A stretch of DNA of 64,000 bases from Actinomycetota bacterium. GTDB taxonomy: Bacteria; Actinomycetota; Actinomycetes; S36-B12. Below are positions 3,066-23,295 of this stretch, one piece after another. The notes beneath the pieces are model-generated. The model was given only the letters and a program-made list of their open reading frames with translations. It was not told the origin of the DNA and did not search any database. Where the stretch lies: contig JADKGE010000003.1 of the NCBI GenBank assembly GCA_016717115.1, positions 21,037-85,036 on the forward strand, in the 5' to 3' direction. The position numbers and the translations under genes were made by a program. Every line of letters starts with the position of its first letter. Position 1 is the first letter of the stretch.

Positions 3066-3622
3066 CCTAGGCGCAGCAGGTCGATGACCATCGGCTGGTG
3101 CGGCCGTGCATGGTAGGTCTCCTCGAAGCCGTCCGTCGTCCACCCGAGCCGCTCGAAGAAGCGGACGTTGGCGATCTGGATGTGCGCCTTCATGATCCGA
3201 CCGCCGTGCTCGGCAGCGGTCGACACCGCCAGCCGGACGAGATCCGACCCGAGCTGGTAGACGCGGAACTCGGGCTCGACCGCGAGCCGGTCCCCCTGCC
3301 AGACGTCGCCGGTCCTGTCCAGGGGATAGAGGCGCACCGCACCGACGACGCGCGATTCCGTCGCGCCGACGAGGTGGATCGTGTCAATCCGCTCGTCGAA
3401 CTCGTCGCGGTCGGTGGCCGGGAAGATGGCCTGCTCGACGACGAACACCTGATGTCGAATGGCGAAGTGCTCGTCGAGGTCCTCCGGGGTGAGGGCAGCC
3501 CTGCACTCGGTCCGGAGGAGCGGGACATCGTCTAGGCGAGTGATGTCGGTCCTCGCCCGATGGTGACGGGAACGGCGGTCGGCGCCGGCTCGAGGGACTT
3601 CAGCCCCGAGCAGGCCTGGCAC
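3062..3622 (-). CDS. GNAT N-acetyltransferase, MSMEG_0567/Sll0786 (Nit1C) type
   Basis: [15 protein letters not shown]...VVGAVRLYP...WQGDRLAV...[14 protein letters not shown]. Lies directly downstream of the radical SAM gene. The GTG start at 3622 would overlap that gene by 91 nt, so the true start is uncertain. Confidence 0.7.
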
Positions 3623-4725
3623 CGCGCGCAGCCGGCCTTCGTCGTGCCGGCATTCATCCCCCGCAGCGCCATGTAGGCCTGCACCTGTCGGTAGATGGGC
3701 TCGGTGTACTCGCGTGGCGGCGAGGGCCAGTCGGCCATGAGCGAACCGGCGACGGGGCGAAGCGGGACGACCAGCGGGAAGACGCCGATGTCAATGGCCC
3801 GCTTGGCTCCTTCGATCGTGATCTTCGGGTCCTCGCCCATGCCGAGGATGACGTAGGTCGACACCTGCCCCTCGCCGAACACCGCCACGGCTCGCTCCCA
3901 CGCGGCGAAGTAGGCCTCCATGCCCGTGCGCGACTTCGCCGGCGCCACGCGCGCCAGGACCGCGGGGTCGAAGGACTCGAGATGGATGCCGACGGAGTCG
4001 ACGCCCATGTCGCCCACCTCGTTGATCACGTTGAGGTCGAGGGGCGGCTCGAACTGCACCTCGACGGGCAGACCGCTGGCCTCCTTCACCGCCTGGGCGC
4101 ACTTGGCCACGTACCGGGCACCGCGATCGACACCGCGCGAGCTGCCGGTGGTCAAGGTGGCGTCGACGGCTCCATCGAGGTCGCGCGCCGCGACGGCGAC
4201 CTCGGCGAGCATCTCGGGGGTCTTCTTCACGATGGTGCGGCCCGCGTCCAGCGACAGGCCGATGCCGCAGAAGGTGCACTGGTCGTCGTTGCCCCAGTAG
4301 GCGCACGTCTGCACGACTGTCGACGCCAGCGAGTCGAGGTGCAGCAGGGCGATCTGCTCGTACGGGATCCCGTCGGCGGTGGTGAGGTCGTAGAAGGCGG
4401 GTCGCTGCTGGGTGCGAGCGCTGGCGAGTCTCGTCGACCCGAGGTAGACGCCGTAGCCGTCGTCCTCGGCGCGCAGGACGTAGGGCGTGTCCTCGGGCTT
4501 CGCCTTGGGGGCCGTGACGCGGTAGCCGTCGATCCACAGCATCCCGAGGTCGGTGGGCCCGGCGCCGCCGACCCGCTGCTCGATGGGTCCGTCCATCTGG
4601 ACGCCACGTGCCTGGATGTCGATGGTCAGGCTGCTGATGTCCATGGGCCGGGTGAAGCCGGCGAGGAATCGTCCGTCGGCGTCCGGACCCTCGGTGACTC
4701 GTGCGTAGTCCAACTGTGTGGTCAT
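3532..4725 (-). CDS. radical SAM protein, MSMEG_0568 (Nit1C) type
   Basis: 397-aa ORF with ATG 4725. Cys cluster TCAYWGNDDQCTFCGI. The GNAT partner lies immediately downstream, as in Nit1C clusters. Confidence 0.7.
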   Translation of the reverse strand: MTTQLDYARVTEGPDADGRFLAGFTRPMDISSLTIDIQARGVQMDGPIEQRVGGAGPTDLGMLWIDGYRVTAPKAKPEDTPYVLRAEDDGYGVYLGSTRLASARTQQRPAFYDLTTADGIPYEQIALLHLDSLASTVVQTCAYWGNDDQCTFCGIGLSLDAGRTIVKKTPEMLAEVAVAARDLDGAVDATLTTGSSRGVDRGARYVAKCAQAVKEASGLPVEVQFEPPLDLNVINEVGDMGVDSVGIHLESFDPAVLARVAPAKSRTGMEAYFAAWERAVAVFGEGQVSTYVILGMGEDPKITIEGAKRAIDIGVFPLVVPLRPVAGSLMADWPSPPREYTEPIYRQVQAYMALRGMNAGTTKAGCARCQACSGLKSLEPAPTAVPVTIGRGPTSLA

Positions 4726-4836: not shown

Positions 4837-5478
4837 TCACGTCGTCTTGTGTCGCCACTCGTCGGCGGTGGCCAGCCACGTGGCCCGGTCGGGGCACTCG
4901 GCCGTCTCGCGCCCGCCTGCGGGATCCACGAGAGTCACGCGAAAGACGGGTTCGCCGGTACTCGGCTGCATGGAGACGGATCGCACCAGTTCGGCGCCCG
5001 AGGCGATGTGGACCTCGACCCATTCCTGGGTGGGCGACATGCCCAGGGTGGCCGCGTCCGGCTCGGACACCGTGACCCAGGCCAGCCCCGCAGCTCGCGC
5101 CTCCTCGACCCTCGTGCTGGTGCGATCCAGCGCGGTGAGCATCAGCAGGGCCCGAAAGCGCTGCGACATGGCCGCATCGACCACCATGTCGAGGTCGAGG
5201 TCCGCGATGGGGAGGGCCTGGCGACTGGCGATCTCCCGGGCGTTGGCCACTGCGGCCGCGTGGCCGCTCTCGAGATCGGCGAGCGTCGAGTCGGCGAAGT
5301 AGGCCGTCAGTTGGCCGATGAGGGTGATGGCGCGCTGGTAGCGGTCGGCGTCGACCATGACGAGCGGGAAGACCTGGTCCTCGGCGGCTCGAAGGCGAGT
5401 CGCCAGCGCGCGGTACTCAGGGGGGATCGCCGACGACTGATCGGCTCCGAATGCGGGGGACGGCGGGATGTTGTTCAC
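4837..5478 (-). CDS. hypothetical protein heading the radical SAM-GNAT operon
   Basis: 213-aa ORF with very high GC3 throughout; I recognise no motif. The GTG start at 5478 lies inside the CACTATAGTG palindrome, so the start is uncertain. Confidence 0.55.
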   Translation of the reverse strand: MNNIPPSPAFGADQSSAIPPEYRALATRLRAAEDQVFPLVMVDADRYQRAITLIGQLTAYFADSTLADLESGHAAAVANAREIASRQALPIADLDLDMVVDAAMSQRFRALLMLTALDRTSTRVEEARAAGLAWVTVSEPDAATLGMSPTQEWVEVHIASGAELVRSVSMQPSTGEPVFRVTLVDPAGGRETAECPDRATWLATADEWRHKTT

Positions 5479-5556
5479 TATAGTGCTGGAACCCTCTCCT
5501 ATCCAGTACGGTTGACCACACCCTATAGGCGCGACTTGCAGTGAGGCGGTGATTCA

Positions 5557-6528
5557 GTGTCGACGACATCTGTCCTTCGCACGGTGGTCATCGCCCTCGG
5601 CGGCAATGCGATCACCGCCGAGGATCAATCCGGAACCTACGCCGAAATGCTGGTCAACTGCCAACGAATGGCGAAGGCGGTGAACGCACTGGTCGACGGC
5701 GGCTGGCGGGTCGTCGTGACCCATGGCAACGGCCCCCAGGTGGGCAACCTGTCCCTCCAGCAGGGTGCGGCCGAGCCCACCGTGCCCGCCCAGCCGCTGA
5801 GCTCGCTGGTGGCGATGACCCAGGGCTGGCTGGGCGGCCTCATCGAGCTGGCGCTGCGCAACACCGGCAGCGCCAGCATGCCGCCCGTCGTGTCGGTCGT
5901 GACGCACGTCGTCGTGGACCCGAGGGACCCCGGATTCCTGAAGTTGACGAAGCCGATCGGCCCCTTCTACGAGAAGGACGCGGCGCAGGCCAGGACGGAC
6001 GAGCTCGGGTGGCAGATGGTGGAGGACTCCGGCCGTGGGTACCGCCGGGTCGTCGCGTCGCCCCACCCCGTGTCGATGCTCGAATCAGACGCGATCGCCA
6101 CCCTCGTCGACAAGGGGTTCCTGGTCATCGCGGCGGGCGGTGGCGGCGTGCCCGTCATCAGGAGTCAAGGCCTCCTCCAGGGCGTCGATGCAGTGGTCGA
6201 CAAGGACCGCGCCGCGGCGATCCTGGCCGCTCAGCTGAAGGCCGACGCGCTGCTGCTGGTGACCGGCGTCGACTCCGTGCTCCTCGACTTCGGGAAGCCG
6301 ACACAGCGCGCACTCCACGATGTGGGAGCCGAGGAGATGCTCCGTCACAACGACGACGGGCAGTTCCCGTCCGGCAGCATGGGGCCCAAGGTGGAGGCGG
6401 CCGTGGAGTACCTCGGCCAGTGCAACGGCCAGGCCGTCATCACGTCGGTCGACAAGATGGTGCCGGCGCTCGAGGGGATGAAGGGCGTGGGCACGAGGAT
6501 TCGACGCACGACGGTGAGGGTTCCGTGA
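5557..6528 (+). CDS. arcC: carbamate kinase
   Basis: VVIALGGNAI...VVVTHGNGPQVGNL...; 323 aa, GTG start. Its stop overlaps the FdrA start (GTGA). Confidence 0.85.
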   Translation: MSTTSVLRTVVIALGGNAITAEDQSGTYAEMLVNCQRMAKAVNALVDGGWRVVVTHGNGPQVGNLSLQQGAAEPTVPAQPLSSLVAMTQGWLGGLIELALRNTGSASMPPVVSVVTHVVVDPRDPGFLKLTKPIGPFYEKDAAQARTDELGWQMVEDSGRGYRRVVASPHPVSMLESDAIATLVDKGFLVIAAGGGGVPVIRSQGLLQGVDAVVDKDRAAAILAAQLKADALLLVTGVDSVLLDFGKPTQRALHDVGAEEMLRHNDDGQFPSGSMGPKVEAAVEYLGQCNGQAVITSVDKMVPALEGMKGVGTRIRRTTVRVP

Positions 6529-8066
6529 CGCCTGTCCAGTCCGTCAAGCTGTTCAAGGACACCTACCTGGACTCCGTCCTCCAGCTCATGGGCACCCGTG
6601 CCATGGAGGGCATGTCCGGTGTCGGCTGGGCGGCGGTCGCCATGTCGACGGCCTCCAACGTCGAGACGCTCTCGGAGCGCGGCTTCCCGTCGACCGAGCT
6701 TGCCGGCGCGTCGCCCGGCGATCTGTTCATCGCGGTCGAGGCGGTCGATGAGCAGACGGCGGCCAGTGCCACCGGCGAGGCCGAAGTGGTCATGTTCTCT
6801 GCGAGGCAAGGGCGCGACACGAGCGGCCAGGCGGCGCCTCGCTCGCTGGAGGAGGCCCTGCGCCAGCAGCCGGCCTCGAACATCGCGGTCATCTCCGTGC
6901 CGGGCGACTATGCGGCCCTGGAGGCGCACAAGGCGCTGGCCAGCGGCCTGGACGTCCTGCTCTTCAGCGACAACGTCTCCCGCCAGGACGAGATCGAGCT
7001 GAAGGAGCACGCGCGGCTGCGCGATCGCCTGCTCATGGGCCCCGGCGCCGGGACGGCCATGCTCGGCGGCGTGGGACTGGCCTTCGCCAACGTCGTGCGC
7101 AGCGGACCGGTCGGCGTGATCGCCGCTGCGGGCACGGGCGCGCAGGAGGCCATGGCCCTGCTGGATCGCTGGGGTGTCGGCGTGTCCCATGTCATCGGCC
7201 TCGGTGGCCGCGACCTCAACGAGGACATCGGCGGGCGCATGGCGCGACAGGCCATCGCCTACCTGAAGGCCGACCCCGGCACGGAGGTCATCCTGTTCGT
7301 CTCGAAGCCGCCGGCTGCGGACGTCGCTCGCGACGTGCTGGCCCTGGCCGACGGCACGCCGCTGATCGCCGCCTTCATGGGGGTGGACACGGGCATGCCC
7401 GTGCCGACCGGCGTCGTCGTCACCGACACCCTCGAGGGAGGTGTGGTGAAGGCGCTGGAGGCGCTGGGCCGCGTGCCTCCGGACACCACGTCGCTCGTCG
7501 GCCCTTCGCTCGACGACGCGATCGCGCGGGTCGACGCCGACCGAACGACGATCCGTGGCCTGTACTCCGGTGGCACCCTCTGCTACGAGGCGCTCGTGCT
7601 GCTGGGCCGGCACTTCGGCGCGGTCTACTCGAACACCCCCGTCGACAAGACGCTGCGGACGCCCGCCCCGGAGCATTCGTCGATCCTCCTCGACCTCGGG
7701 GAGGAGGAGTACACCAAGGGGCGGCCGCATCCGATGATCGATCCGCAGGCGCGTGTCGAGATGCTCGAGGAGCTCGTCGACGACGACGACGTGGCGGTCA
7801 TCGTCATGGACGTCGTGCTCGGGTACGGCTCGCATCCCGACCCGGCGGGCGTGCTCGCTCCTGTCTGCGCGCGCATCATGGCCGACGGCGGCCCGCAGGT
7901 CGTCACATACGTCCTTGGCACAGACGGGGACCCGCAGCACTACCAGGCCCAGGTCGACGTGCTCACCGCCGTGGGATGCATCGTCACCGAGACCGCGGCG
8001 CGGGCCGCCCTCGCGTCGGCAGCCATCGCCGCGCGGAAGCCGGGCGTTGCTAGCGTCAGCCTGTGA
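6525..8066 (+). CDS. fdrA: FdrA family protein (succinyl-CoA-synthetase-alpha-like)
   Basis: GTG 6525 in frame within ORF 6009..8066. VKLFKDTYLDSVLQLM..., VISVPGDYAALEAHKALASGLDVLLFSDNV, GPGAGTAMLGGVGLAFAN, VIGLGGRDL. Confidence 0.8.
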   Translation: MTPVQSVKLFKDTYLDSVLQLMGTRAMEGMSGVGWAAVAMSTASNVETLSERGFPSTELAGASPGDLFIAVEAVDEQTAASATGEAEVVMFSARQGRDTSGQAAPRSLEEALRQQPASNIAVISVPGDYAALEAHKALASGLDVLLFSDNVSRQDEIELKEHARLRDRLLMGPGAGTAMLGGVGLAFANVVRSGPVGVIAAAGTGAQEAMALLDRWGVGVSHVIGLGGRDLNEDIGGRMARQAIAYLKADPGTEVILFVSKPPAADVARDVLALADGTPLIAAFMGVDTGMPVPTGVVVTDTLEGGVVKALEALGRVPPDTTSLVGPSLDDAIARVDADRTTIRGLYSGGTLCYEALVLLGRHFGAVYSNTPVDKTLRTPAPEHSSILLDLGEEEYTKGRPHPMIDPQARVEMLEELVDDDDVAVIVMDVVLGYGSHPDPAGVLAPVCARIMADGGPQVVTYVLGTDGDPQHYQAQVDVLTAVGCIVTETAARAALASAAIAARKPGVASVSL

Positions 8067-9229
8067 CAGACGCCCTGAAGGTCGCGGTCCTCACCTATTC
8101 GACCAAGCCCCGTGGTGGCGTCGTGCACTCGCTCAGCCTTGCCGAGGCCCTCGCCGCGCAGGGCGTCGACGTGCACCTCTTCGGTCTGGGGCCTGCCGAC
8201 GGCGAGTTCTTCCGGCCCACCACGGTCCCCTTCACGCTGTTCCCCGCTCCGGAGACCGCCGAGTCGCTCGAAGACAAGGTCTTCGCCTCGGTCGACGCCA
8301 TGGCGCTGGGGCTGAAGGGGCTGGACGCCGGGTTCGACATCCTCCATTCGCAGGACTGCATCTCCGCGCGGGCCGCCACCCGCGTGCGCGACGACGGCCT
8401 GAGCACGCCCGTCGTGCGGACCGTGCACCATGTCGACGACTTCACCACGCGGGCGCTCATCGACTGCCAGCGGCAGGCCATCCTCCAGCCCGATCACATC
8501 CTCGTGGTCAGCACGCGGTGGCAGGAGATCATGCTCGAGGAGTACGGGAGACGAGCCGACATCGTCCGCAACGGAGTCGATCCCGGCCGGTTCCCGGCGA
8601 TCACGGACGATAGGCGATCCGCACTGCGCGAGTCCGTGTCGGCGGGCGACCGTCGCGTGCTGCTCTCCATCGGAGGAATCGAGCCCCGCAAGGGGAGCAA
8701 CGAGCTGTTCGAGGCACTGGGCATCCTGAAGGAGCGCGGTCTGCGACCCGTCCTGGTCATGCTCGGCGGGCACTCGTTCCAGGACTATGCGGCGTACCGC
8801 GACGCGGCCCTCGCCCGCCTGCCGGAGCTCGGCCTCGAGCTGGGTGTGGACATCGTCCAGGTCGGCACGGTCGACGACGTGACGCTCGGGGAGTGGTACC
8901 GGGCGGCAGATGCTCTCGCGTTCCCGTCGGTCAAGGAGGGCTTCGGCCTGGTGGCACTGGAGGGCCAGGCGGCCGACCTGCCCGTGGTGGCCAGCAGCAT
9001 CCCGGTGTTCGCGGAATTCCTGACGGACGGCGAGAACGCGCTGCTCCCCGAGGTCGGCAACCCGATCGCGATCGCTGATGCGCTCGAGCGCGTGCTGACC
9101 GACTCCGACCTGCGAGCCCGACTCGTCGCGGGTGGCCGTGAGGTCGTGCCGAGATTCGGCTGGGACGCATCTGCCCGGCGACACATCGAGATCTACCGCG
9201 AGGTGCTGGCGGGTCGAGCTCAGTCCTGA
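8063..9229 (+). CDS. glycosyltransferase, MSMEG_0565 (Nit1C-associated) type
   Basis: VAVLTYSTKPRGGVVHSLSLAEALAAQGVDVHLF... with a GT4-like C-terminal half (EGFGLVALEG). GTG start overlaps the fdrA stop. Confidence 0.7.
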   Translation: MTDALKVAVLTYSTKPRGGVVHSLSLAEALAAQGVDVHLFGLGPADGEFFRPTTVPFTLFPAPETAESLEDKVFASVDAMALGLKGLDAGFDILHSQDCISARAATRVRDDGLSTPVVRTVHHVDDFTTRALIDCQRQAILQPDHILVVSTRWQEIMLEEYGRRADIVRNGVDPGRFPAITDDRRSALRESVSAGDRRVLLSIGGIEPRKGSNELFEALGILKERGLRPVLVMLGGHSFQDYAAYRDAALARLPELGLELGVDIVQVGTVDDVTLGEWYRAADALAFPSVKEGFGLVALEGQAADLPVVASSIPVFAEFLTDGENALLPEVGNPIAIADALERVLTDSDLRARLVAGGREVVPRFGWDASARRHIEIYREVLAGRAQS

Positions 9230-10224
9230 GCCCGCTCCAGCCCGGTGGCGGGAGTGTCCTGCGCGTCGATCAGGTGCCTGATCTCACCGTCCACGGCGAC
9301 GCTGATCACTCCCGTCTGGTCGATCACGCCCACCTTCGCTGCCGAGAGACCGGCGTCGACGAAGACGGAGATGCACTCCTGTGTCGTCTCCGGATCGCAC
9401 GTCAGCAGGAAGCCGAAGCAGGGGAAGCAGTTGAACCACTGGCCGAGGGGTACGTCGCGGGGGGTCGGGACGGCGTCCACGTCGATGATCACCCCGAACG
9501 ATCCCCACTCGAGCAGCATCGCGAGCGAGCCGACGAGGCCGGCCATGCTGATGTCCTTGGCTCCCCGGGCCAGTCCGCGGCTGGCGATCGCGGAGAACAG
9601 GCGCACGTCGTCCCCGAGTCGATCACCCCGCTCGTCGAAGGACGCGAAGAACGGGAAGTCCGAGCGCATGCGGCCATCGGTGCACGCTACGACGACGAGG
9701 TCCTGGCCGCTCGCGACATTCGTGGACGACAGCACGGTGTCTGCGTGACCCACGGCGAAGGCCGAGAGAGACGCCGGACCGTCGGTGATGGTGAGGTGAC
9801 CGCCGACGATGGGAACACGGTAGAGGGCGGATGCGTACCGCATGCCCTCCAGCACACTGCGCGCTGTCTGCCGCGAGGCGACCACGGTGTCGACGATGGC
9901 CAGGGGAAGGCCGCCCATGGCAGCAACGTCGTTGACGTTCGCGAGGACCGCCGCGATCCCCGCTCCGTAGGGATCGGCCGCCACGAACGGCGGCCAGATG
10001 GCCTCTCCGCAGGCGATCACGCTGGCACCAGCCACGGACACCACTGCGCCGTCGTCGCCGGGACCCTCGACCCAGCCCGACTCTCCGAGCACGTCACTGA
10101 CGAGCCGGATGTCGCGTTTCGCGGCGATCGACGGGTTGGAGAGCACCGCCTGGGCTATCTCGTCGAGAAGCTGCGCTGCAGAGTGCTGACCGCCCACGAC
10201 GCTCCGTTCCAGGGTGTCGGCCAC
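9220..10224 (-). CDS. AIR-synthase-related (PurM-like) protein, sll0787 type
   Basis: 334 aa. GPGDDGAVV, ANVNDVAAMGG, VPIVGGHLT, AKDISMAGLVGSL are PurM-superfamily patterns. Convergent 10-nt overlap with the glycosyltransferase. Confidence 0.7.
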   Translation of the reverse strand: MADTLERSVVGGQHSAAQLLDEIAQAVLSNPSIAAKRDIRLVSDVLGESGWVEGPGDDGAVVSVAGASVIACGEAIWPPFVAADPYGAGIAAVLANVNDVAAMGGLPLAIVDTVVASRQTARSVLEGMRYASALYRVPIVGGHLTITDGPASLSAFAVGHADTVLSSTNVASGQDLVVVACTDGRMRSDFPFFASFDERGDRLGDDVRLFSAIASRGLARGAKDISMAGLVGSLAMLLEWGSFGVIIDVDAVPTPRDVPLGQWFNCFPCFGFLLTCDPETTQECISVFVDAGLSAAKVGVIDQTGVISVAVDGEIRHLIDAQDTPATGLERAQD

Positions 10225-10292
10225 GACGAAGGCGACCGACGAAGTTCTTTCCTATAGTGAATCTTCTCCTAGGATAGTCTAGGATCCTGCGC

Positions 10293-11072
10293 GTGAAGCC
10301 GGATTTCCTGAGACTCCCCGAGGTGCCCGCCAAGCCTCGCACCGTGGGCGTCACGCACATGCTGGACAAGGGAATCCCGCTCAACACCACCGCCGCGATC
10401 CTGCGTTCCTACGCCGATCACATGGACTTCTGGAAGTTCGGCTGGGGCACCGCCTATGTGGAGAGCCAGCTGGCCGACAAGCTCGCCGTCCTGCACGAGC
10501 ACGACGTGGTCGCCTGTCTCGGTGGCACGCTCATGGAGATCGCGTGGGCGCAGAACGCGGTGGACGAATGCCTGGCCTGGGCTCGCCGTGTCGGGTTCCG
10601 CGCGGTCGAGGTGTCGCGGGGCAGCGTGCCGATGCCCCTGTCTGCCAAGGCGATGATCATCCGGCAGGCAGCACCGCACTTCACCGTGCTCGCCGAGACC
10701 GGATACAAGAGCGCCGAGCGGCTCATGTCTCTCGATGAGTGGTCGGCGGAGATCGTCGAGGACCTCGACAGCGGCGCCGAGTACATCGTCACGGAGGGCC
10801 GCGAGAGCGGCACGGTCGGCGTCTACGACCATGACGGCGAGCCCAAGCCCGAGGTCGTTCGCGCCGTGATCGAGGCCGCTGGTCTGGAACGCGCACTCTT
10901 CGAGGCCCCCCGCAAGAGCCAGCAGGCCTGGTTCATCAACGAGTTCGGACCCGACGTCAATCTCGGCAACATCCCGCCCGACGACGCGCTGGCCCTGCAC
11001 ACCCTGCGGCTGGGCCTTCGCGCGGACACGATCAGCATCACCACCACGACCGTCGAGTCAGTTCGACTGTAG
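10293..11072 (+). CDS. phosphosulfolactate synthase (ComA) family protein
   Basis: LRLPEVPAKPRTVGVTHMLDKG...DFWKFGWGTAYV...VEVSRGSV...YIVTEGRESGTVGVYD matches the ComA family pattern. GTG start. Confidence 0.7.
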   Translation: MKPDFLRLPEVPAKPRTVGVTHMLDKGIPLNTTAAILRSYADHMDFWKFGWGTAYVESQLADKLAVLHEHDVVACLGGTLMEIAWAQNAVDECLAWARRVGFRAVEVSRGSVPMPLSAKAMIIRQAAPHFTVLAETGYKSAERLMSLDEWSAEIVEDLDSGAEYIVTEGRESGTVGVYDHDGEPKPEVVRAVIEAAGLERALFEAPRKSQQAWFINEFGPDVNLGNIPPDDALALHTLRLGLRADTISITTTTVESVRL

Positions 11073-11118
11073 GTGTGGGCACCTTGGCCCCGCTCGGGAT
11101 CCTCGTCGTGGAACTGCC

Positions 11119-12450
11119 ATGACTGTGCGTCTCACCGAGTCCGCGATGTACCGGCACGCCTGGACCACTCCGTCGCTCGACGCGATCCTCGCGGAGGACG
11201 CACGACTGCGCACCTGGCTGCGCATCCTCGCTGTGCTGGCCGACTGCCAGGCACGGCTGGGGATCATCCCCGGGGCCGCGGCGACGGCGATCGCCGAGGA
11301 TGCCCAGGCGGATCGACTCGATCTCGAGGCGATCGCTGCGCGAACCCGGGAGTCGTCGCACAGCGTGCTGGGCCTGATCGAGGGGTTGCAGGCGACGCTC
11401 CCCGACCAGGCGCGGGAGTACGTGTACTACGGCATCACGGTCCAGGACCTCACGGACACCTGGTTCGGCCTGGTCATGCGCGACGTGACCGCAATCCTGC
11501 GAGCTGACCTCGTGCGCATCGAGACTGCCTGCCTGCGACTGGCCCACGAGCACCGCGCCACGGTCATGGCGGGACGTACGCACGGACAGGTCGGATCGCC
11601 CATCACCTTCGGCCTCAAGGCCGCGACGTGGGCCGACGAGACGGCGCGCAACATCGAACGGCTCGACGAGGGCGTGCGTCGCTGGGCGGTCGTGCAGCTG
11701 GCCGGGTCGACGGGGGGCCTGGCGTTCTTCGGCGAGCAGGGTGCCGAACTGAGGGCGCTGTTCAGCGGGGCCCTCGGCCTCGGCGACCCGGGCGTCTCCT
11801 GGACGTCGACGCGCGACCGCACCGCGGAGTTCGGCGCCACCCTGAGCCTGGTGACCGGGGCGCTGGCGCGCATCGGGAACGAGATCTACGAGCTCCAACG
11901 GCCGGAGATCGCCGAGCTCAGCGAACCCTTCAACAGTGCGGTCGTGGGCAGCATCACGATGCCGCACAAGCGCAACCCCGAGTACTGCGAGCACCTGGAC
12001 ACCCTGGCCCGGGTCGCGCGTGCAGCGGCCGGGGGCCTGCTGGAGGGAACGGCCGCGAGCCACGAGAGGGACGGCCGCGCCTGGAAGGCGGAGTGGGCCT
12101 TCCTGCCCGACGTGGCGTTGGCCGCCGGCACGTCGGCATCGCTCGGCGCCGAACTCCTCGAGGGTCTCGTGGTCCACCCGGAGGCCATGCTGCGCAACCT
12201 GGGCGACGACGGTTCATGGGCCTCGGAGCAGGTCCTCGTCCAGCTGTCGCGGCGGCTGGGCAAGCATCGTGCCCAGGCGCTGCTGCAGTCGGCCTTCGCG
12301 TCCGACGGGTCCGACGTGGCCACGACCATCGCGGTCGCCGCCGGAGTCGACGTCGCCGACGTGCAAGCCTGGATGGATGTCCCGAACACGACGACGGCGA
12401 CCGCCATGGTCGACGGCGTGGTCGCCCGGCTGGGCGGGCCATCCCGGTGA
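11119..12450 (+). CDS. fumarate-lyase superfamily enzyme (adenylosuccinate lyase / 3-carboxymuconate cycloisomerase-like)
   Basis: 443 aa. Signature loop GSITMPHKRNPEYCEH. RTHGQVGSPITFG. Confidence 0.75.
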   Translation: MTVRLTESAMYRHAWTTPSLDAILAEDARLRTWLRILAVLADCQARLGIIPGAAATAIAEDAQADRLDLEAIAARTRESSHSVLGLIEGLQATLPDQAREYVYYGITVQDLTDTWFGLVMRDVTAILRADLVRIETACLRLAHEHRATVMAGRTHGQVGSPITFGLKAATWADETARNIERLDEGVRRWAVVQLAGSTGGLAFFGEQGAELRALFSGALGLGDPGVSWTSTRDRTAEFGATLSLVTGALARIGNEIYELQRPEIAELSEPFNSAVVGSITMPHKRNPEYCEHLDTLARVARAAAGGLLEGTAASHERDGRAWKAEWAFLPDVALAAGTSASLGAELLEGLVVHPEAMLRNLGDDGSWASEQVLVQLSRRLGKHRAQALLQSAFASDGSDVATTIAVAAGVDVADVQAWMDVPNTTTATAMVDGVVARLGGPSR

Positions 12451-13409
12451 ACCCGACTGCCGCCTTCTCGCGCTACTCGCTGGGGCAGTTCCCCACCCCG
12501 CTGCATCGCCTGCACCGTCTGGAGCAGGCGCTCGGTGGCGGTCACCTGATGGTCAAGCGCGACGACCTCGCCGGCTTCGCCGTGGCCGGCAACAAGACTC
12601 GGCCGCTGGAGTTCCTCATCGGTGATGCCCTGACGTGCGGTGCCGAGGTCGTCGTCAGCGGAGGCGCACCCAAGTCCAACTTCGCTTCCGCGCTGGCGGC
12701 CGCGACTCGATCGGCGGGGCTCGAGTGCGAGCTGATGGTCCCGGGGGGCAAGCTCGACGACCCCCCGGTGCCCTTGGCCATGGCCATCGCGAGCGGCGCC
12801 ACCTTGCGCTTCACGGGCGGTGATCGGGAGGAGCTCGACACGGCGATCGACGAACGAGTCCGGGAGCTGGCTGCCGCGGGCCGACGCGCGTACGCCGTGC
12901 CCCGAGGCGGAGCCTGCGCTGTCGGAGCACTGGGCTTCGCCAATGCCGCCTGCGAGCTCGCAGAGCAGGGGGTGCCCGACGATGCCGCCATCGTGCTGCC
13001 CGTCGGCTCAGGCGCCTCCGTCGCCGGACTGATCGCCGGGCGAGCGGCCGTCGGGGCGGGATGGTCCGTGGCAGGGGTGTCCGTGAGTCGGCCCATCGAC
13101 GAGATGCACGAGCAGACGTCCTCCATCGCCGCTGCCTGCAGCCGGAGCATGCTCACTGCCGAGCCGCACGATGCACTGCTCGTCGATGCCACTGTCCCGG
13201 GCATGGCCGCCGTGACGGAGGGCGAGCGCGTCGATGCGCTGCTGGCCTTCGACACGGAGGGCCTGCTCTTCGACCCCTCCTACGGGGTGAAGGCGCTCCA
13301 CCACGCGCTGACGATGATCAGGCAGGGTTCGACCGAACCGATCATCCTGTGGCACACGGGCGGCCTGACGTCGGCGATTCCGTTGATCGCACGCGAAGGT
13401 GCGTCATGA
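12447..13409 (+). CDS. PLP-dependent enzyme, ACC deaminase / D-cysteine desulfhydrase / CuyA family
   Basis: GTG 12447 (GTGA overlap with the previous stop), in frame within ORF 11628..13409. FPTPLHRL...VKRDDLAGFAVAGNKTRPLEFL contains the PLP-lysine motif. Confidence 0.75.
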   Translation: MNPTAAFSRYSLGQFPTPLHRLHRLEQALGGGHLMVKRDDLAGFAVAGNKTRPLEFLIGDALTCGAEVVVSGGAPKSNFASALAAATRSAGLECELMVPGGKLDDPPVPLAMAIASGATLRFTGGDREELDTAIDERVRELAAAGRRAYAVPRGGACAVGALGFANAACELAEQGVPDDAAIVLPVGSGASVAGLIAGRAAVGAGWSVAGVSVSRPIDEMHEQTSSIAAACSRSMLTAEPHDALLVDATVPGMAAVTEGERVDALLAFDTEGLLFDPSYGVKALHHALTMIRQGSTEPIILWHTGGLTSAIPLIAREGAS

Positions 13410-14884
13410 CCATCGACGGCGCCGACGAGCTGGCACGGGCCGGCTACGCGTGGGAGATCGCCGACGCGCCGCTGCTGCACGAGCCGCTGACTCTCGCGGA
13501 CCTCGCCCACGTGCTCGAGCTGGTCCGCATCAAGGCGATCCCGCCCGCGTCGGCTCGCGCGCTGGCAGGTGAGCTCCTTGCCATGCTCGCCGCCCCGCCC
13601 GAGTCCGTCGACTACTCGCCGGCCTTCGGGGAGATGTACTCCTCGCGCGAGCACCACCTCGCGAACCGGATAGGGGACGATGCGGGCTGGCTGCACTCGG
13701 GCAGGACCAGGCGCGAGGCGATGCGGATCGCCTATCGGATCCTGGTGCGGCGTCATGTCGTCGACCTGGTCGGCGGGGCCGCGGGGCTCGCCGAGGCGCT
13801 GTGCGACCAGGCCGCCGAGGACCTCGACAGCGTGATGCCCGACTACACCTACCTGCAGCCGGCCGAGCCGACCACGTTCGGCCACTACCTCGCGTCGTTC
13901 GTCGATCCGGTGCTCCGCGACGGAGGGCGGCTCGAGCGGGAGTTCGCCGACGTCAATGCCAGTCCCATGGGCTCCGGCGCAGCGAGCGGGTCCGCCCTCC
14001 TGCGTGAGCGCACCGTGGCCGGCAACGACCTCGGCTTCGACGGCGCCATCGACCACGTCCGCGATGCCATGTGGCAGAGCGACCCGTTCACCCACGTGCT
14101 CCTCGCCGCCACCACGCTTGTCCTCGGTCAGGACAAGCTGGCAGAGGACCTCGAGGTCTTCGCCAGTCGCGAGTTCGACTTCGTCCAGCTCGGTGACGGA
14201 CTGGTGCGTCCGAGCGTGCTGATGCCGCAGAAGCGCAACCCGTACGCGCTCACCGTCATCCGGGGGATGTCGGGAATCCTCATCGGGCGCGCGACCGGGC
14301 AGCTGGCCGTGTCCAAGTCGCCGTCCGCACGGAGCGATCTGTACATCTACGCGTATGGCGAGGTGCCCCGCGCGCTCGATCTGGCGACGCGCACGACGGA
14401 GCTGTCGACAGCAGTCGTGCGCACGCTGCGGGTCAGCGCCTCGCGCATGAGCGCGGCGCTGGTCGGCCGCCACACCGGTGCCGCCGAGACGGCCGCCTAC
14501 CTGGTGCGCGAGTTCGGAGTCGACTACCGCACGGCTCACTCGATCGTCTCGCAGGCGGTGCGTGCGGCCGGAGCGGACGCGCGAGAGGTCACGGCTGCCG
14601 ACATCGCGACGGCGGCGCGGACCGCGGGCATCGCGCCCGTCGTCGTCACGGACGACCGGCTGCGTGCGCTGGCCGACCCGCGAGGCGTGGTCGCATCGCA
14701 CGACGGACTGGGCGGCTCGGCGGCGGAGTCGATGACGGCGTTCATCGCGGAGCGGCGAATGCGCGCCGAGGAGCTGGCCACATGGGCGCAGGGCACGAGA
14801 CGCCGCCTCGACGACGGTGAGGCGAGCGTGGTCCGACGGGCACGGGAACTAGTGGGCGAGTACGACGACAAGGAGATCTCATGA
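13406..14884 (+). CDS. fumarate-lyase superfamily enzyme (argininosuccinate lyase-like)
   Basis: ATG 13406 (ATGA overlap), in frame within ORF 13061..14884. YLQPAEPTTFGHY, signature SVLMPQKRNPYAL. Confidence 0.75.
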   Translation: MTIDGADELARAGYAWEIADAPLLHEPLTLADLAHVLELVRIKAIPPASARALAGELLAMLAAPPESVDYSPAFGEMYSSREHHLANRIGDDAGWLHSGRTRREAMRIAYRILVRRHVVDLVGGAAGLAEALCDQAAEDLDSVMPDYTYLQPAEPTTFGHYLASFVDPVLRDGGRLEREFADVNASPMGSGAASGSALLRERTVAGNDLGFDGAIDHVRDAMWQSDPFTHVLLAATTLVLGQDKLAEDLEVFASREFDFVQLGDGLVRPSVLMPQKRNPYALTVIRGMSGILIGRATGQLAVSKSPSARSDLYIYAYGEVPRALDLATRTTELSTAVVRTLRVSASRMSAALVGRHTGAAETAAYLVREFGVDYRTAHSIVSQAVRAAGADAREVTAADIATAARTAGIAPVVVTDDRLRALADPRGVVASHDGLGGSAAESMTAFIAERRMRAEELATWAQGTRRRLDDGEASVVRRARELVGEYDDKEIS

Positions 14885-16296
14885 GTCCAGTACGGGAACT
14901 GCCGAGCGAGGCGCACGTGATCAACCTCGGCCTCCCGGACTTCGCCGCCGCCGTCGCCGCGCAGGGGGCGGAGGCCATCCAGGTCGACTGGAGCCTTCCG
15001 GCCGGCGGAGATCCCACCAGCGTCGCGGCCCTCACTGCGCTGTACGGCGTGCGGTCGATCTCCATCGACGACGCCAACGCCGAGATCGTGCGTCGCCTCG
15101 ACAAGGGCACGCCGTTCCTCACCGGCGTGGCTCCGGCCGGGGAGGTCGTTCCGGGCCTGGGCGACCGCATGCTGCTGCATGCCGGTCCGCCCATCGCCTA
15201 CGAGCAGGTGTGCGATCCGATGCGCCGGTCGATGCGCGCCGCCGTCGTGGCGGAGGGGTGGGCCGCAGACCTCGGTGCCGCCGAGGAGCTGCTCGCCCGA
15301 GGGGACATCGCGCTCGACGCCGCCAACGACCATGCGACGGTCGTTCCCATGGTGACGGCGCTGGGCCCGACCACACCGGTCTGGATCGCGGACAACGCCG
15401 ATGCCGGCACGCGCGGCTTCGCGCCGGTCAACCAGGGCCCCGGTGACGTGGCGTGGTTCGGTCGCGAGAGCCAGGGGGCGATCGACCGACTGGTGTTCCT
15501 GCGCGACGTGGTCCAGCCGAGATTCGCCCGGATCCTGGACGAGGTGGGTCCGATCGACATCATGTCGCTGGCGAGCCAGGGCGTGCAGATGGGCGACGAC
15601 GTGCACATCCGGACCCAGGCAACGACGAACCTGTTGATCCGCAACGTCCTTCCCGCGATCTCCCGGCTCGGAAAGGACCCGGAGTCGGTGGCGATGTCCG
15701 AGTTCCTGGCCACGTCGCACCTGTTCTTCCTCACCATCGCGATGGCCGGCGCGAAGTCGCTGACGCTCGCGGCCGAGCAGGTCGCGGGAGGAACCGTCGT
15801 CACCACGATGGCCCGCAACGGCACCACGTTCGGTGTGAAGCTCGCCGGCTCTGCGACCTGGCACGTGTGCGACGCGCCGCCCGTCGGCGATGCCCTCTAC
15901 TACTCGGGCTACAGCGAGTCGGACGCGGCGAAGGATGTCGGCGACAGCGCCGTCCTCGAGCTGGTCGGCCTCGGTGGCGCTGCCGCGGCCGCCTCGCCGG
16001 CGGTGGCGGGGTTCCTCGGCGGCTCGATGGACGACGCGGTCCGTGCGACCAGCGAGATGATCACCATCTGCCTGTCCGAGAGCACCCGGTTCAAGCTGCC
16101 CATCCTCGGCTTCCGGGGAAGCCCGCTCGGAGTGGATGTCCGACGAGTCGTCGAGACCGGGGTGCGACCGAAGGTGACCACCGGCGTCCTGCACGTCAGC
16201 TCAGGTGTCGGCCAGATCGGCGCCGGGGTCGCGACCGCACCGCTCGAGGGGTTCCGTGAGGCGCTCCTCCTGCTCGCGGCCGGTCCTCGGGACTGA
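14881..16296 (+). CDS. DUF1116 (YlbE-like) protein
   Basis: 471 aa with ATGA overlap to the previous gene. NDHATVVPMVTALGP...MARNGTTFGVKL...ELVGLGGAAAAASPAV is the pattern I associate with YlbE/DUF1116. Confidence 0.65.
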   Translation: MSPVRELPSEAHVINLGLPDFAAAVAAQGAEAIQVDWSLPAGGDPTSVAALTALYGVRSISIDDANAEIVRRLDKGTPFLTGVAPAGEVVPGLGDRMLLHAGPPIAYEQVCDPMRRSMRAAVVAEGWAADLGAAEELLARGDIALDAANDHATVVPMVTALGPTTPVWIADNADAGTRGFAPVNQGPGDVAWFGRESQGAIDRLVFLRDVVQPRFARILDEVGPIDIMSLASQGVQMGDDVHIRTQATTNLLIRNVLPAISRLGKDPESVAMSEFLATSHLFFLTIAMAGAKSLTLAAEQVAGGTVVTTMARNGTTFGVKLAGSATWHVCDAPPVGDALYYSGYSESDAAKDVGDSAVLELVGLGGAAAAASPAVAGFLGGSMDDAVRATSEMITICLSESTRFKLPILGFRGSPLGVDVRRVVETGVRPKVTTGVLHVSSGVGQIGAGVATAPLEGFREALLLLAAGPRD

Positions 16297-16301
16297 CCTC
16301 G

Positions 16302-17132
16302 ATGCCGACCCCCGGTCGCGTGCTCGGCATCGGCGATGTCGCCTTGCGCGCGCTGGCATCGGGTCGCGAGGGCGAGGTCGTGGCGGTGTTCTCACGTGCC
16401 GCATACCTGGACCTCGCCGGAGACATCGCCGTGCTCGTCCTCGGGGACGTCCCGAACGGACCCCTTCATGTGCGACTCGACCGACTGCCGCGACTTCGAC
16501 GCGGCGCCCGGGTCCGTTGCCGCTCAGGCGTGGTCGCGATCGAGGAGCACAGATGGCTCACTCCGTCGGCGGCGTGGCGGCCCGAGCCTCCTGTTGACGT
16601 CGTGTCGGCCGAGCCGATCGTCAGCGCCGTCGTCCGTCATCGACCCGTGCTCGACATGGGGACCGGCAGCGTGGTCGACATCGACGGCTGGCTGGTGCCG
16701 TTGCTGGCTCATGGCGACGTCGCGGGAGCCTGCGCACGCCTCTTCGGGCGAGGGGCGGGCCTGACTCCTGCGGGCGACGACGTGGCCGCCGGCATCCTGC
16801 TCGTCGAGTGCCTGTCGGGCTCCGCTGATCGAACGAGCCTGGGTCTCCTCGCGACCCGTGCGCCGACGCACGCGATCTCCCGTGCCTTCCTGCGAGCTGC
16901 GGCCGAGGGCCAGTGCATCGAGCCCGTCCACACGCTGCTGCGGGCAGCCAGTGCCGGCGACGAGGGCGTGGCCACCGACGCGGTGGAGCAGCTCAGCCGC
17001 GTCGGTCACACGTCGGGATTGGACCTCGCGGCCGGAGTCCGTGCCGCGCTGGTCGCCTTGGCCGCGCGGGCCGATTCCGCCGACCGCACCCCGCGCGACA
17101 CGATCAGCATCCACGCCCACAAGGTGCCGTAG
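16302..17132 (+). CDS. DUF2877 (YlbF-like) protein
   Basis: 276 aa. GRGAGLTPAGDDVAAGILL and VGHTSGLDL motifs. The last 127 nt overlap the convergent NiCoT gene. Confidence 0.65.
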   Translation: MPTPGRVLGIGDVALRALASGREGEVVAVFSRAAYLDLAGDIAVLVLGDVPNGPLHVRLDRLPRLRRGARVRCRSGVVAIEEHRWLTPSAAWRPEPPVDVVSAEPIVSAVVRHRPVLDMGTGSVVDIDGWLVPLLAHGDVAGACARLFGRGAGLTPAGDDVAAGILLVECLSGSADRTSLGLLATRAPTHAISRAFLRAAAEGQCIEPVHTLLRAASAGDEGVATDAVEQLSRVGHTSGLDLAAGVRAALVALAARADSADRTPRDTISIHAHKVP

Positions 17133-18088
17133 GCGACCACGATCACGTAGCCGACGAGCTCGAAGTGCTGGCTCACCTCGGCCAGCGGCGCGAGGAACGC
17201 GATCCCGAACTGGCTGACGAGGAGCCCCGCCGCGTAGATGAGGCCCACCGTGATGGCGATGCATGCGGTCAGCAGCGTCATCACCATGTTGAACGTGAGG
17301 CGTCGTCGGGGCTGCGTTCGATTGGAACCGTAGACGCTGATCATCAGCAGTGAGTTGAGGGTGTCGAACAGGGTCATGCCCGCGGCGAAGAGGATCGGCA
17401 GGGCAAGCAAGGACATCAGGGGCATCGTCCCCGAGACGGCCGCAGTGGCCGACAGGCCGAGCAGGGCGATCTCCGATGCCGTCTCCAGTCCGAGCCCGAA
17501 GACGAAGCCGATGGGGAACATCCGCCAGCTCGCCGTCACCGACGACTGCAGCCGGCTGCCGAAGAGTCGGCTGAGCACGCTCCTGGCATTGAGGATCTCG
17601 TCGATCTGCTCGTTGCTCAGGTCGACGCCGCGGTGGGCCTGCCGGGCCGTCCAGACGCGACGGAGCACGCGCAGGTTGAGGACGCCGACGAAGAGGAGGA
17701 AGGATGCTGCGACGAGTGCCGAGAAGGTGCCGCCGATCCCGCGCACCGCAGGGATGACGGTCTCGCTCGCGGAGGCGCTGGCCACGGCCACGACCACGAA
17801 GAGGACGAACACGACGCTCGAGTGGCCGAGGGCGAAGAACAGGCCGAGTCCGGTCGGACGCTGACCCTGGCGAACGAGCAGCCGAGTGCAGTCGTCGATC
17901 GTGGCGAGGTGGTCGGCGTCGAACGCATGACGCACGCCGAGAACGTAGGCCAGGGTGCCTGCCCCGACGTAGGCGGCCGTCGCACTCCCGGCGCTGGCCG
18001 AGTACGCGTACAGACCCCAGCCCGCGAGGTTCAGCGCGATGACGACCGCGATGACCAGGCGGATCTGCCGGCGGCCCTGGGTTCTCAT
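17006..18088 (-). CDS. NiCoT (HoxN/HupN/NixA) nickel/cobalt permease
   Basis: Signature RHAFDADHLATIDD and FFALGHSSVV. Multiple TM segments. ATG 18088 preceded by GAGGAG (the ORF track start 18157 is less likely). Confidence 0.85.
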   Translation of the reverse strand: MRTQGRRQIRLVIAVVIALNLAGWGLYAYSASAGSATAAYVGAGTLAYVLGVRHAFDADHLATIDDCTRLLVRQGQRPTGLGLFFALGHSSVVFVLFVVVAVASASASETVIPAVRGIGGTFSALVAASFLLFVGVLNLRVLRRVWTARQAHRGVDLSNEQIDEILNARSVLSRLFGSRLQSSVTASWRMFPIGFVFGLGLETASEIALLGLSATAAVSGTMPLMSLLALPILFAAGMTLFDTLNSLLMISVYGSNRTQPRRRLTFNMVMTLLTACIAITVGLIYAAGLLVSQFGIAFLAPLAEVSQHFELVGYVIVVAYGTLWAWMLIVSRGVRSAESARAAKATSAARTPAARSNPDV

Positions 18089-18162
18089 CCCGATCTCCTC
18101 TGCCGGCAATGACCTGAACGCACTCGCGAGGGCTGTCATAGTAAGGCACACGCTCATTCACT

Positions 18163-18606
18163 ATGGGTGATTCGCAGACTCCGATGACGGGCTGGAGGGA
18201 CGACGTGGCCGACGACAGGACCGTGAGCGCGCGGTGGCTCGGTGGGTACCAGGTCGACGTCGTCACGGGAGACTTCACGGTCCGCGTCGACGAACCCGAG
18301 CGCGTCGGTGGCACAGACACCGGCCCGCAGCCGACCGACCTGCTGCTCGCGTCGGTCGCCTCGTGCTTCGTGCTCTCGCTGGCCTGGGCTGCCAAGAAGC
18401 GCGAGATGGAGGTGCCTGCCATCTCCGTCGAGGTGACCGGGACCTACGAGGGCCCGCGCTTCTCCTCGATGGTGATCGCGGTGTCGATGCCGGTGCCCGA
18501 CGACGTGGCAGAGCGACTGATCCAGTCAGCCGAGCGGGTCTGCTACGTGACGAACACGCTCAAGCGCGCGCCGGACATCACGGTGCGGCGCGTCGACGCG
18601 ATCTAG
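18163..18606 (+). CDS. OsmC/Ohr family protein
   Basis: 147 aa. GTDTGPQPTDLLLASVASCFVLSL...AERVCYVTNTL, with the two conserved Cys regions of OsmC. Confidence 0.75.
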   Translation: MGDSQTPMTGWRDDVADDRTVSARWLGGYQVDVVTGDFTVRVDEPERVGGTDTGPQPTDLLLASVASCFVLSLAWAAKKREMEVPAISVEVTGTYEGPRFSSMVIAVSMPVPDDVAERLIQSAERVCYVTNTLKRAPDITVRRVDAI

Positions 18607-21605: not shown

Positions 21606-21632
21606 CGACCGCGGCAGCCATGGGAGGCAAGC

Positions 21633-22912: not shown

Positions 22913-23295
<383 letters not shown>

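Follow-up and report, generated by a model that had tools for sequence, protein, structure and literature searches.

Genes for carbamate kinase and for AllF, AllG, and AllH, the three subunit families of oxamate transcarbamylase (OXTCase), are built into a conserved ~24-gene cluster and are inherited with it. The cluster occupies positions 3062–24254 of a 64,000-nucleotide stretch of DNA from an Actinomycetota bacterium (GenBank assembly GCA_016717115.1, contig JADKGE010000003.1, positions 21,037–85,036 of the forward strand; hereafter, the window). It has four components: Nit1C-type genes (for a glycosyltransferase, an AIR-synthase-like protein, a GNAT acetyltransferase, a radical SAM protein, and MSMEG_0572); a complete XcbABCDE-type set; genes for a flavoprotein, an OsmC protein, and a PuuR-like regulator; and usually a cobalt nitrile hydratase.

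In the window, the carbamate kinase–AllFGH module is split over two plus-strand operons. Carbamate kinase, AllF, and an MSMEG_0565-family glycosyltransferase form one plus-strand unit, in which GTGA overlaps join the kinase to AllF (6525–6528) and AllF to the glycosyltransferase (8063–8066). The second operon reads ComA, XcbD, XcbE, XcbC, AllG, AllH; from XcbD on, its genes are joined by a GTGA overlap and two ATGA overlaps, the last of them between XcbC and AllG, and then by a 5-nt gap between AllG and AllH. The end of AllF lies 6.8 kb from the start of AllG. Because a minus-strand gene for the AIR-synthase-like protein intervenes, the two operons are separate transcription units with divergent promoters. 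A plus-strand open reading frame (ORF) at 9274–10257 would have fused the two into a single operon, but it matches no family, and third-position GC content (GC3) and family matches favor the minus-strand gene. The G+C content of the window is ~67%, so that most of its long ORFs are spurious; genes were chosen by GC3 first and by family matches second, and scans against family libraries covered the called, GC3-selected ORFs rather than the window exhaustively.

A preliminary description of this DNA had placed carbamate kinase (5557), FdrA (6525), and the glycosyltransferase (8063) in one operon with GTGA overlaps, and DUF1116 (14881) and DUF2877 (16302) genes at the end of a second operon 6.8 kb away. 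Family models and a reading of the sequence bear out both statements; profile searches matched the latter two proteins to PF06545 (AllG) and PF11392 (AllH), with scores far above the gathering scores. It had also described the module as translationally coupled to Nit1C-type genes, which holds for AllF and the glycosyltransferase. AllG, by contrast, shares its ATGA overlap with XcbC, a lyase of the coenzyme M type, and is coupled to that gene. In the set of ORFs scanned over the 64 kb, no allantoin or ureide gene and no amidase was found, in agreement with that description, and no nitrilase either.

The module proteins are about equally far from AllFGH of Escherichia coli and from its paralogues YahEFG: AllF is 36% identical to E. 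coli AllF and 39% to YahF, AllG is 36% identical to E. coli AllG and 35% to YahG, and the kinase is 39% identical to AllK and 43% to YahI. The earlier label “oxamate-transcarbamylase-type” is thus correct as family membership and probably does not extend to orthology. A segment of ~45 residues that forms the C terminus of AllF in E. coli (positions 5220–5348 of locus L031) sits at the N terminus of AllG both here (14881–15020, VINLGLPDFA...WSLPAGG) and in YahG, which gives the pair YahFG-type boundaries. The family also includes many AllF–AllG fusion proteins of ~1000 amino acids (P0131 and others). These fusions, together with the segment that moves between the two proteins, argue that AllF and AllG are partners despite the split. 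When the family is clustered at 50%, the AllG clade contributes just one full-length sequence to the 393 strong representatives. A close AllG homologue is encoded by Planosporangium flavigriseum.

Co-inheritance and probable shared regulation of the cluster

We compared 26 related loci (L numbers), each of at least 14 kb and with an AllG at least 50% identical to that of the window. They came from contigs with AllG homologues, a scan of species-representative genomes, and plasmid and metagenome collections, and each was searched with all window proteins. Because it searched for peptide patterns without mismatches, the species-representative scan did not recover the nearest named relatives, and the sample is not exhaustive; with flanks limited to 10 kb, presence counts are lower bounds. 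The loci carry the lineage labels Actinomycetes, Acidimicrobiia, Chloroflexota, Dormibacterota, Bacillota, and Alphaproteobacteria. XcbC was found in all 26, XcbA and XcbD in 24 each, ComA and OsmC in 23 each, the AIR-synthase-like gene and the regulator in 21 each, and carbamate kinase, the flavoprotein, and MSMEG_0572 in 20 each; nitrile hydratase followed in 19, and AllH and the radical SAM protein in 18 each. The constant partner is the XcbC-like lyase with the coenzyme-M-type module.

Gene order is reshuffled between lineages while the gene set stays constant, a classic sign of functional coupling. The gene before AllG is XcbC in Actinomycetes and Acidimicrobiia, the regulator in Chloroflexota, GNAT in L044 and L045, and MSMEG_0572 in Methylocystis. 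The start–stop overlaps at the kinase/AllF, AllF/glycosyltransferase, and XcbC/AllG junctions are kept in relatives, and the order kinase–AllF–glycosyltransferase with 4-nt overlaps recurs in L002, L034, L035, and L040. Loci whose AllG is only 36–39% identical to that of the window have none of the cluster genes. Whether the two halves travel independently had been raised in the preliminary description; across these 26 loci, from several phyla, they travel together.

AllF is visible in 13 of the loci and is in no case a same-strand neighbor of AllG, the gaps ranging from 1.1 to 9.1 kb. In two annotated outgroup loci, AllF and AllG are contiguous (with AllH as well in L025) and lie beside genes of xanthine-dehydrogenase type and genes for an amidase and an amidohydrolase. 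Given these contiguous outgroup pairs and the many fusions elsewhere, the split is a real peculiarity of this clade.

Locus L042, on plasmid NZ_CP143315.1 (180–201 kb) of the cultured methanotroph Methylocystis iwaonis SD4, carries AllF, AllG, and all five Xcb genes. It also has a Pnap_2097-family gene and a nitrilase of the classical Nit6803 type, and no nitrile hydratase was found there within 41 kb. An Amidohydro_2 gene stands at the nitrile hydratase position in Asanoa. In L036 and L039, the most compact clusters, no nitrile hydratase lies within 10 kb, and carbamate kinase, AllF, AllG, the AIR-synthase-like gene, radical SAM, GNAT, and Xcb genes are kept.

The operons also share a promoter motif. 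For the 8-mer ATAGTGAA, 0.16 copies would be expected in the 64-kb window; there are four, a count reached by none of 100 shuffles. All four are confined to the divergent promoter regions of the cluster, each pointing into an operon (Table 1). Two of the sites scored as −10 hexamers of sigma-70-like promoters: TATAGT at 5473–5485, for the minus-strand operon, and the site at 19368, within TTGACG-17-CATAGT. The motif also lies upstream of ComA in L008, L015, L019, L020, L027, and L034. In 447 kb of orthologous loci, we counted 16 copies of ATAGTGAA against ~1 expected by extrapolation from the window; each lies inside an intergenic region or at its border, and all point at ComA, the flavoprotein, unk213/radical SAM, or the AIR-synthase-like gene. 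In extended form, the motif reads YATAGTGAAY and is found in the same places in distant genomes.

This distribution suggests shared regulation of the cluster operons. Both operons of the split module carry the motif, which speaks for the co-regulation that the preliminary description had made a test of its reading, and AllF, AllG, AllH, and carbamate kinase are probably regulated together with the cluster. Because the cluster encodes a PuuR-like regulator and the motif resembles sequences of the E. coli puuA-puuD intergenic region, we read it as a candidate operator of a PuuR-like repressor that would overlap −10 elements. That E. coli region holds TATAATGACC and ATATTGAACA, which we take to be the form of PuuR operators; a literature search on the PuuR operator sequence returned nothing relevant.

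Gene content of the cluster

Table 1. Genes and promoter motifs of the cluster from left to right, in window coordinates. Scores are in bits, with model cut-offs in parentheses; JS614, Nocardioides JS614.
Feature	Position	Strand	Evidence and remarks
MSMEG_0567/Sll0786-type GNAT acetyltransferase	3062..3535	-	TIGR04045 112.6 (68); kept in related loci
MSMEG_0568-family radical SAM protein	3532..4725	-	TIGR04043 366 (304)
unk213, conserved protein, 213 amino acids as called	4837..5478	-	No Pfam or NCBIfam match; divergent from carbamate kinase gene
Palindrome CACTATAGTG with cluster motif TATAGTGAAC on minus strand	5473..5485	.	8-mer at 5474 (-), between unk213 and carbamate kinase
Carbamate kinase	5557..6528	+	NF009007 309.8 (266); TIGR00746 343.1, slightly under cut-off (358); AA_kinase Pfam 3e-27
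AllF/FdrA/YahF-type subunit, succinyl-CoA synthetase alpha-like fold	6525..8066	+	Ligase_CoA, CoA_binding; PDB 3dmy (FdrA) 9e-71; FdrA subfamily model 402 (433)
MSMEG_0565-family GT4 glycosyltransferase	8063..9229	+	TIGR04047 354 (260)
sll0787-type AIR-synthase-like (PurM superfamily) protein	9220..10224	-	TIGR04049 262.7 (321.3); AIRS, AIRS_C Pfam match; GC3 0.85 on minus strand
Cluster motif TATAGTGAAT	10253..10262	+	8-mer at 10254, between AIR-synthase-like gene and ComA, 31 nt upstream of ComA
ComA/XcbB-type phosphosulfolactate synthase	10293..11072	+	PF02679 2.2e-80; 46% identity to JS614
XcbD-like lyase, adenylosuccinate-lyase family	11119..12450	+	NF052536 542 (600); 50% identity to JS614
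XcbE-like pyridoxal-phosphate enzyme	12447..13409	+	NF052537 199 (450); 37% identity to JS614; GTGA overlap
XcbC-like lyase, argininosuccinate-lyase family	13406..14884	+	NF052535 404 (575); 46% identity to JS614; ATGA overlap
AllG/DUF1116/YahG-type subunit	14881..16296	+	PF06545 1.6e-59; PDB 3clq 3.6e-75
AllH/DUF2877-type subunit	16302..17132	+	PF11392 8.9e-22; in 18/26 related loci
NicO-family Ni/Co transporter	17006..18157	-	Family matches
Cluster motif CATAGTGAAT	18156..18165	-	8-mer at 18157, NicO/OsmC junction
OsmC/Ohr-type peroxiredoxin	18163..18606	+	PF02566 7e-19; in 23/26 loci
PuuR-like regulator, HTH_3 + cupin	18603..19370	-	29% identity to E. coli PuuR, 1e-22; in 21/26 loci
Cluster motif CATAGTGAAC	19368..19377	+	8-mer at 19369, between regulator and flavoprotein, upstream of flavoprotein operon
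CoA-disulfide-reductase/NADH-peroxidase-type flavoprotein	19427..20770	+	Single Cys44, as in those enzymes
Conserved 83-amino-acid ORF	20772..21023	+	Read from sequence; no family match
MSMEG_0572/Sll0783 nitrogen-starvation response protein, faintly DsrE-like	21063..21551	+	TIGR04044 197 (110)
Nitrile hydratase beta subunit	21567..22316	+	TIGR03888 154.3 (152.2)
Nitrile hydratase alpha subunit, cobalt type	22313..22912	+	TIGR01323 306.6 (250); VCTLCSCY metal-site motif
Nitrile hydratase accessory protein, His/Asp-rich tail	22909..23295	+	TIGR03889 78 (46); ATGA overlap
XcbA-family protein (DUF7714), right-hand cluster end	23325..24254	-	NF052538 392.6 (150); PF24830 4.7e-84; 63% identity to JS614

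All five families of the bacterial coenzyme M pathway are present (Table 1). XcbC, XcbD, and XcbE are the top NCBIfam matches of the respective proteins but all score under the NCBI curated cut-offs; XcbC is also 35% identical to its counterpart in Xanthobacter Py2. On the simplest reading of these matches, the set would make coenzyme M or a close analogue. One reference used here is Nocardioides JS614, which we take to be a coenzyme-M-dependent ethene and vinyl chloride oxidizer, and the window flavoprotein is 31% identical to the flavin adenine dinucleotide-dependent oxidoreductase that adjoins the JS614 xcb operon. Genes for an epoxyalkane:coenzyme M transferase and an alkene monooxygenase did not turn up among the families found in the window. 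XcbA lies at the far end on the opposite strand here and in L034, a 91%-identical relative in which the cluster likewise ends at XcbA; in most relatives and in JS614, it stands between ComA and XcbD.

GNAT is the final gene of a minus-strand operon that runs unk213, radical SAM, GNAT. Homologues of unk213 (25–42% identity) adjoin the radical SAM or carbamate kinase gene in 15 of the 26 loci, and its true start is probably further downstream, since the annotated one overlaps the promoter motif. The AIR-synthase-like protein scores under the TIGR04049 cut-off, yet this is its top-scoring family model. An 81–83-amino-acid gene occupies the position between the flavoprotein and MSMEG_0572 in L001, L002, L034, L035, and L040 as well. 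OsmC belongs to a thiol peroxidase family. The NicO transporter probably supplies cobalt to the nitrile hydratase, and in L040, the cobalt transporter genes CbtA/CbtB stand in its place. The AllH and NicO genes converge with a 127-nt overlap (17006–17132), a similar overlap of ~100 nt occurs in L001, and L034 has no NicO gene at the position after AllH.

Outside the cluster, a DUF1348 (SnoaL-like) gene (2385–3065) abuts the GNAT end. Directly after XcbA come two genes for major facilitator superfamily (NarK-like) transporters, narG, narH, narJ, and moeA (25322–36639); these nar genes are unrelated to the cluster. A Mutator-family transposase (48853–50142; PF00872, 2e-136) lies beside genes for a GH32 glycosidase and a sugar ABC transporter.

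Possible functions of the module

As a whole, the explanation we favor, while putting it at slightly less than an even chance, is that the module encodes a pathway-specific carbamoyl-X/phosphate transferase that works with carbamate kinase within the co-inherited cluster. In E. coli, AllFGH interconverts oxamate plus carbamoyl phosphate and oxalurate plus phosphate reversibly, an activity demonstrated in 2024 (PMC11326118) that has since given Pfam its names AllG and AllH for these families; it works with the catabolic kinase AllK (PMC11326118, PMC9843812). Modules of the allFGHK type adjoin biuret/triuret genes without ureide genes in nitrifiers (PMC12625717). The closest plasmid-borne carbamate kinases lie on the s-triazine catabolic plasmids pADP-1 and those of Paenarthrobacter aurescens TC1 and Aminobacter SR38, the last with a DUF1116 gene 1.2 kb from the kinase. 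Judged by these contexts, the AllFGH family appears to have been reused for different carbamoyl compounds.

In the window, AllF and AllG would form a transferase of the YahFG/AllFG type, with AllH as a dispensable helper. It would catalyze X-CO-NH2 + Pi ↔ X-H + carbamoyl phosphate with a pathway-specific acceptor, and the kinase would connect carbamoyl phosphate to ATP, NH3, and CO2. X would not be oxamate; a heteroatom would be required, most plausibly the sulfur of the coenzyme-M-type thiol of the adjacent genes, or nitrogen. The catabolic, nitrogen-releasing direction would be favored because the outgroup contexts are catabolic, the PuuR homologue is a repressor-type protein, and nitrogen starvation induces classical Nit1C clusters (PMC6039565, PMC4222082). 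In Mycobacterium smegmatis, the Nit1C cluster confers peroxide resistance and is induced through GlnR under nitrogen starvation (PMC6039565).

Several points weigh against this transferase. Identity to E. coli AllF/AllG is only 34–39%, and the uncharacterized YahF/YahG are about equally close. AllH, which is part of the E. coli enzyme and needed for almost all of its activity (PMC11326118), was not found in 8 of the 26 loci (e.g., L002, L015, L035, L036, and L039), and the Methylocystis iwaonis cluster has neither carbamate kinase nor AllH within 41 kb. The gene linked most tightly to AllG encodes a lyase for sulfonated C3 acids, whose chemistry has no obvious carbamoyl connection. Moreover, sequence cannot give the direction of a reaction, several of the 26 loci are close relatives of one another, and the presence counts are only lower bounds.

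A more specific version, which we rate as a long shot, would tie the components into a thiol-cofactor route. A coenzyme-M-type thiol, the product of the Xcb genes, would carry a cyano or carbamoyl group on its sulfur, and nitrile hydratase would convert S-cyano to S-carbamoyl. AllF/AllG would split this thiocarbamate with phosphate, as succinyl-CoA synthetase does with a thioester, giving carbamoyl phosphate and freeing the thiol again; from the carbamoyl phosphate, the kinase would yield ATP, NH3, and CO2. Upkeep of the thiol would fall to the single-cysteine flavoprotein, the DsrE-like MSMEG_0572, and OsmC.

The preliminary description had speculated that AllFGH phosphorolyzes an amide or ureido compound, such as one formed by the nitrile hydratase, to carbamoyl phosphate, with carbamate kinase then giving ATP and NH3 and so replacing the missing amidase. 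An ordinary carbon-bound carboxamide cannot yield carbamoyl phosphate, so that the proposal is workable only for a heteroatom-bound cyano group, X-C≡N being hydrated to X-CO-NH2 and then phosphorolyzed. In its favor, nitrile hydratase accompanies AllG in most of the related loci, amidase and nitrilase are missing among the scanned ORFs, and the cobalt-type enzyme comes with a dedicated accessory protein and a metal transporter. With 188 bits against a cut-off of 291 on the model for the gamma subunit of thiocyanate hydrolase, its alpha subunit shows kinship to a family that hydrates S-C≡N, and the same cluster holds a thiol-making module and a disulfide-reductase-type flavoprotein. However, AllF and AllG persist beside a Nit6803 nitrilase in Methylocystis iwaonis, beside Amidohydro_2 in Asanoa, and without a nearby hydratase in L036 and L039, and AllG is tied more tightly to XcbC than to the hydratase (26 against 19 loci). 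A specific link of the module to the nitrile hydratase product is weakly supported, and we consider this explanation unlikely.

We are equally doubtful of an anabolic scheme that follows HypF/HypE logic. HypE, of the same superfamily as the AIR-synthase-like protein, dehydrates a thiocarbamate to a thiocyanate. By analogy, carbamoyl phosphate from carbamate kinase or a housekeeping carbamoyl-phosphate synthetase would let AllFG carbamoylate an acceptor such as a coenzyme-M-type thiol, which the AIR-synthase-like protein would dehydrate to a cyano group with ATP. In favor of this scheme, the E. coli OXTCase reaction runs freely both ways and was measured as carbamoylation (PMC11326118); 21 of the 26 loci have the AIR-synthase-like gene, which lies between the two operons here, and the compact L036 and L039 keep it with the kinase, AllF, AllG, and Xcb genes in the absence of a nearby hydratase. 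Yet the protein has no NCBIfam HypE match at E ≤ 0.001 and no C-terminal Cys motif, which also led us to reject HypE-like self-carbamoylation. Bacterial carbamate kinases are normally catabolic, consumption of NH3 fits poorly with the nitrogen-starvation induction of Nit1C clusters, and a hydratase or nitrilase of the cluster would undo the product. We also discarded a ureido-to-guanidino route suggested by an argininosuccinate synthase gene beside the L001 cluster: it is an ordinary argG (830 bits) that marks the cluster edge.

Two further explanations were considered. AllF and AllG with the amino-acid-kinase-family protein might handle no carbamoyl group at all and instead act, as succinyl-CoA synthetase does, on an acyl phosphate or thioester of a sulfonated acid from the Xcb pathway (e.g., acyl-S-coenzyme M ↔ acyl phosphate). 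The succinyl-CoA synthetase alpha fold of AllF, with its CoA_binding and Ligase_CoA domains, would fit, as would the translational coupling of AllG to XcbC, which all 26 loci have, and the YahFG-type domain boundaries, the Yah set being uncharacterized. We nevertheless think it improbable, to about the degree of the two preceding schemes: the kinase clears the cut-off of the curated carbamate-kinase subfamily model of NCBIfam and falls just short of the equivalog one, the sole characterized family member is a carbamoyltransferase, and the coenzyme M operon of JS614 shows no AllF/AllG gene in the 19 kb examined. AllF does not keep the GHAGA phosphohistidine loop of SucD, although the two proteins align weakly there, and on this ground we also set aside a phosphohistidine mechanism. 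Alternatively, the genes might encode a genuine oxalurate-cleaving OXTCase and kinase for ureide catabolism, merely located inside an unrelated cluster. All three subunit families and the kinase are indeed present, but the scanned ORFs hold no ureide or allantoin gene, and the module genes are interleaved with and translationally coupled to cluster genes, share the cluster promoter motif, are co-inherited across lineages despite shuffled order, and are no closer to AllFGH than to YahEFG. This last explanation we regard as very improbable, far more so than any of the others.

Relation to known systems

The component families are all known, and we found no description of their conserved combination or of the split arrangement in the literature searched; no relevant paper joined nitrile hydratase or Nit1C with phosphosulfolactate synthase, carbamate kinase, or DUF1116/DUF2877. 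Three lines meet in this cluster. To our knowledge, only one member of the AllFGH/YahEFG transferase family has been characterized, and only since 2024, and the bacterial coenzyme M pathway has so far been tied only to alkene and epoxide metabolism. The Nit1C cluster, associated with nitrogen starvation and with cyanide and peroxide resistance, was named in 2005. The recurrence of the cluster in soil Actinomycetota, Acidimicrobiia, Chloroflexota, and others points to a common, unrecognized pathway, probably of nitrogen scavenging or redox protection, and AllFG-type enzymes likely have substrates besides oxalurate. The cluster could open up the Nit1C problem. If the thiol-cofactor route were true, coenzyme M would gain a new function beyond methanogenesis and the oxidation of alkenes, and there would be a first biochemical handle on Nit1C clusters. 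The question is testable in cultured carriers: Streptosporangium sp. NPDC000396, Asanoa hainanensis, and Methylocystis iwaonis SD4.

Compared with E. coli AllFGH and AllK (the allFGHK operon), the window has the same three subunit families and a carbamate kinase, presumably with the same type of reaction. The E. coli genes fdrA-ylbE-ylbF-ybcF are contiguous, as the preliminary description stated, and adjoin allECD, whereas in the window AllF and AllG belong to two distant operons in a region where the scan turned up no ureide genes. AllF and AllG measure 513 and 471 amino acids in the window against 555 and 419 in the E. coli All proteins. In this respect, the likeness is closer to the uncharacterized paralogues YahE-YahF-YahG-YahI (515 and 472 amino acids), to which identity is also slightly higher for AllF (39%) and the kinase (43%). 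The Yah genes are contiguous, occur with the amidohydrolase YahJ, and have nothing Nit1C- or Xcb-like beside them; a literature search on Yah function returned nothing relevant.

The likeness to Nit1C clusters (MSMEG_0565-0572, “gpr,” of M. smegmatis; sll0783-0787 of Synechocystis; and the Pseudomonas nit genes; PMC1199592, PMC6039565, PMC7815647) rests on the glycosyltransferase, GNAT, radical SAM, and MSMEG_0572 proteins, all of which pass curated cut-offs; an AIR-synthase relative resembling sll0787, with a score under the TIGR04049 cut-off, accompanies them. The defining nitrilase of the Nit6803/sll0784 type was not found in the window, where cobalt nitrile hydratase genes follow MSMEG_0572 instead. 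The window also differs in that its flavoprotein is of the CoA-disulfide-reductase type and in that it adds five Xcb genes, AllF/G/H, carbamate kinase, OsmC, and the PuuR-like regulator. With the XcbABCDE systems of bacterial coenzyme M biosynthesis (Xanthobacter Py2, PMC9457059; Nocardioides JS614, pNOCA01), it shares all five families at 37–63% identity to JS614. The JS614 operon order ComA-XcbA-XcbD-XcbE-XcbC is that of most related loci (e.g., L001, L002, and L035). In the window, XcbA is displaced to the other strand, and XcbC, XcbD, and XcbE fall under the strict cut-offs; in alkene oxidizers, coenzyme M synthesis is accompanied by epoxyalkane:coenzyme M transferase and alkene monooxygenase genes. 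The allFGHK modules beside biuret/triuret genes (PMC12625717) or on s-triazine plasmids likewise stand outside allantoin catabolism, near other carbamoyl-compound pathways. In those modules the genes lie together, whereas in the window they are split and have entirely different partners.

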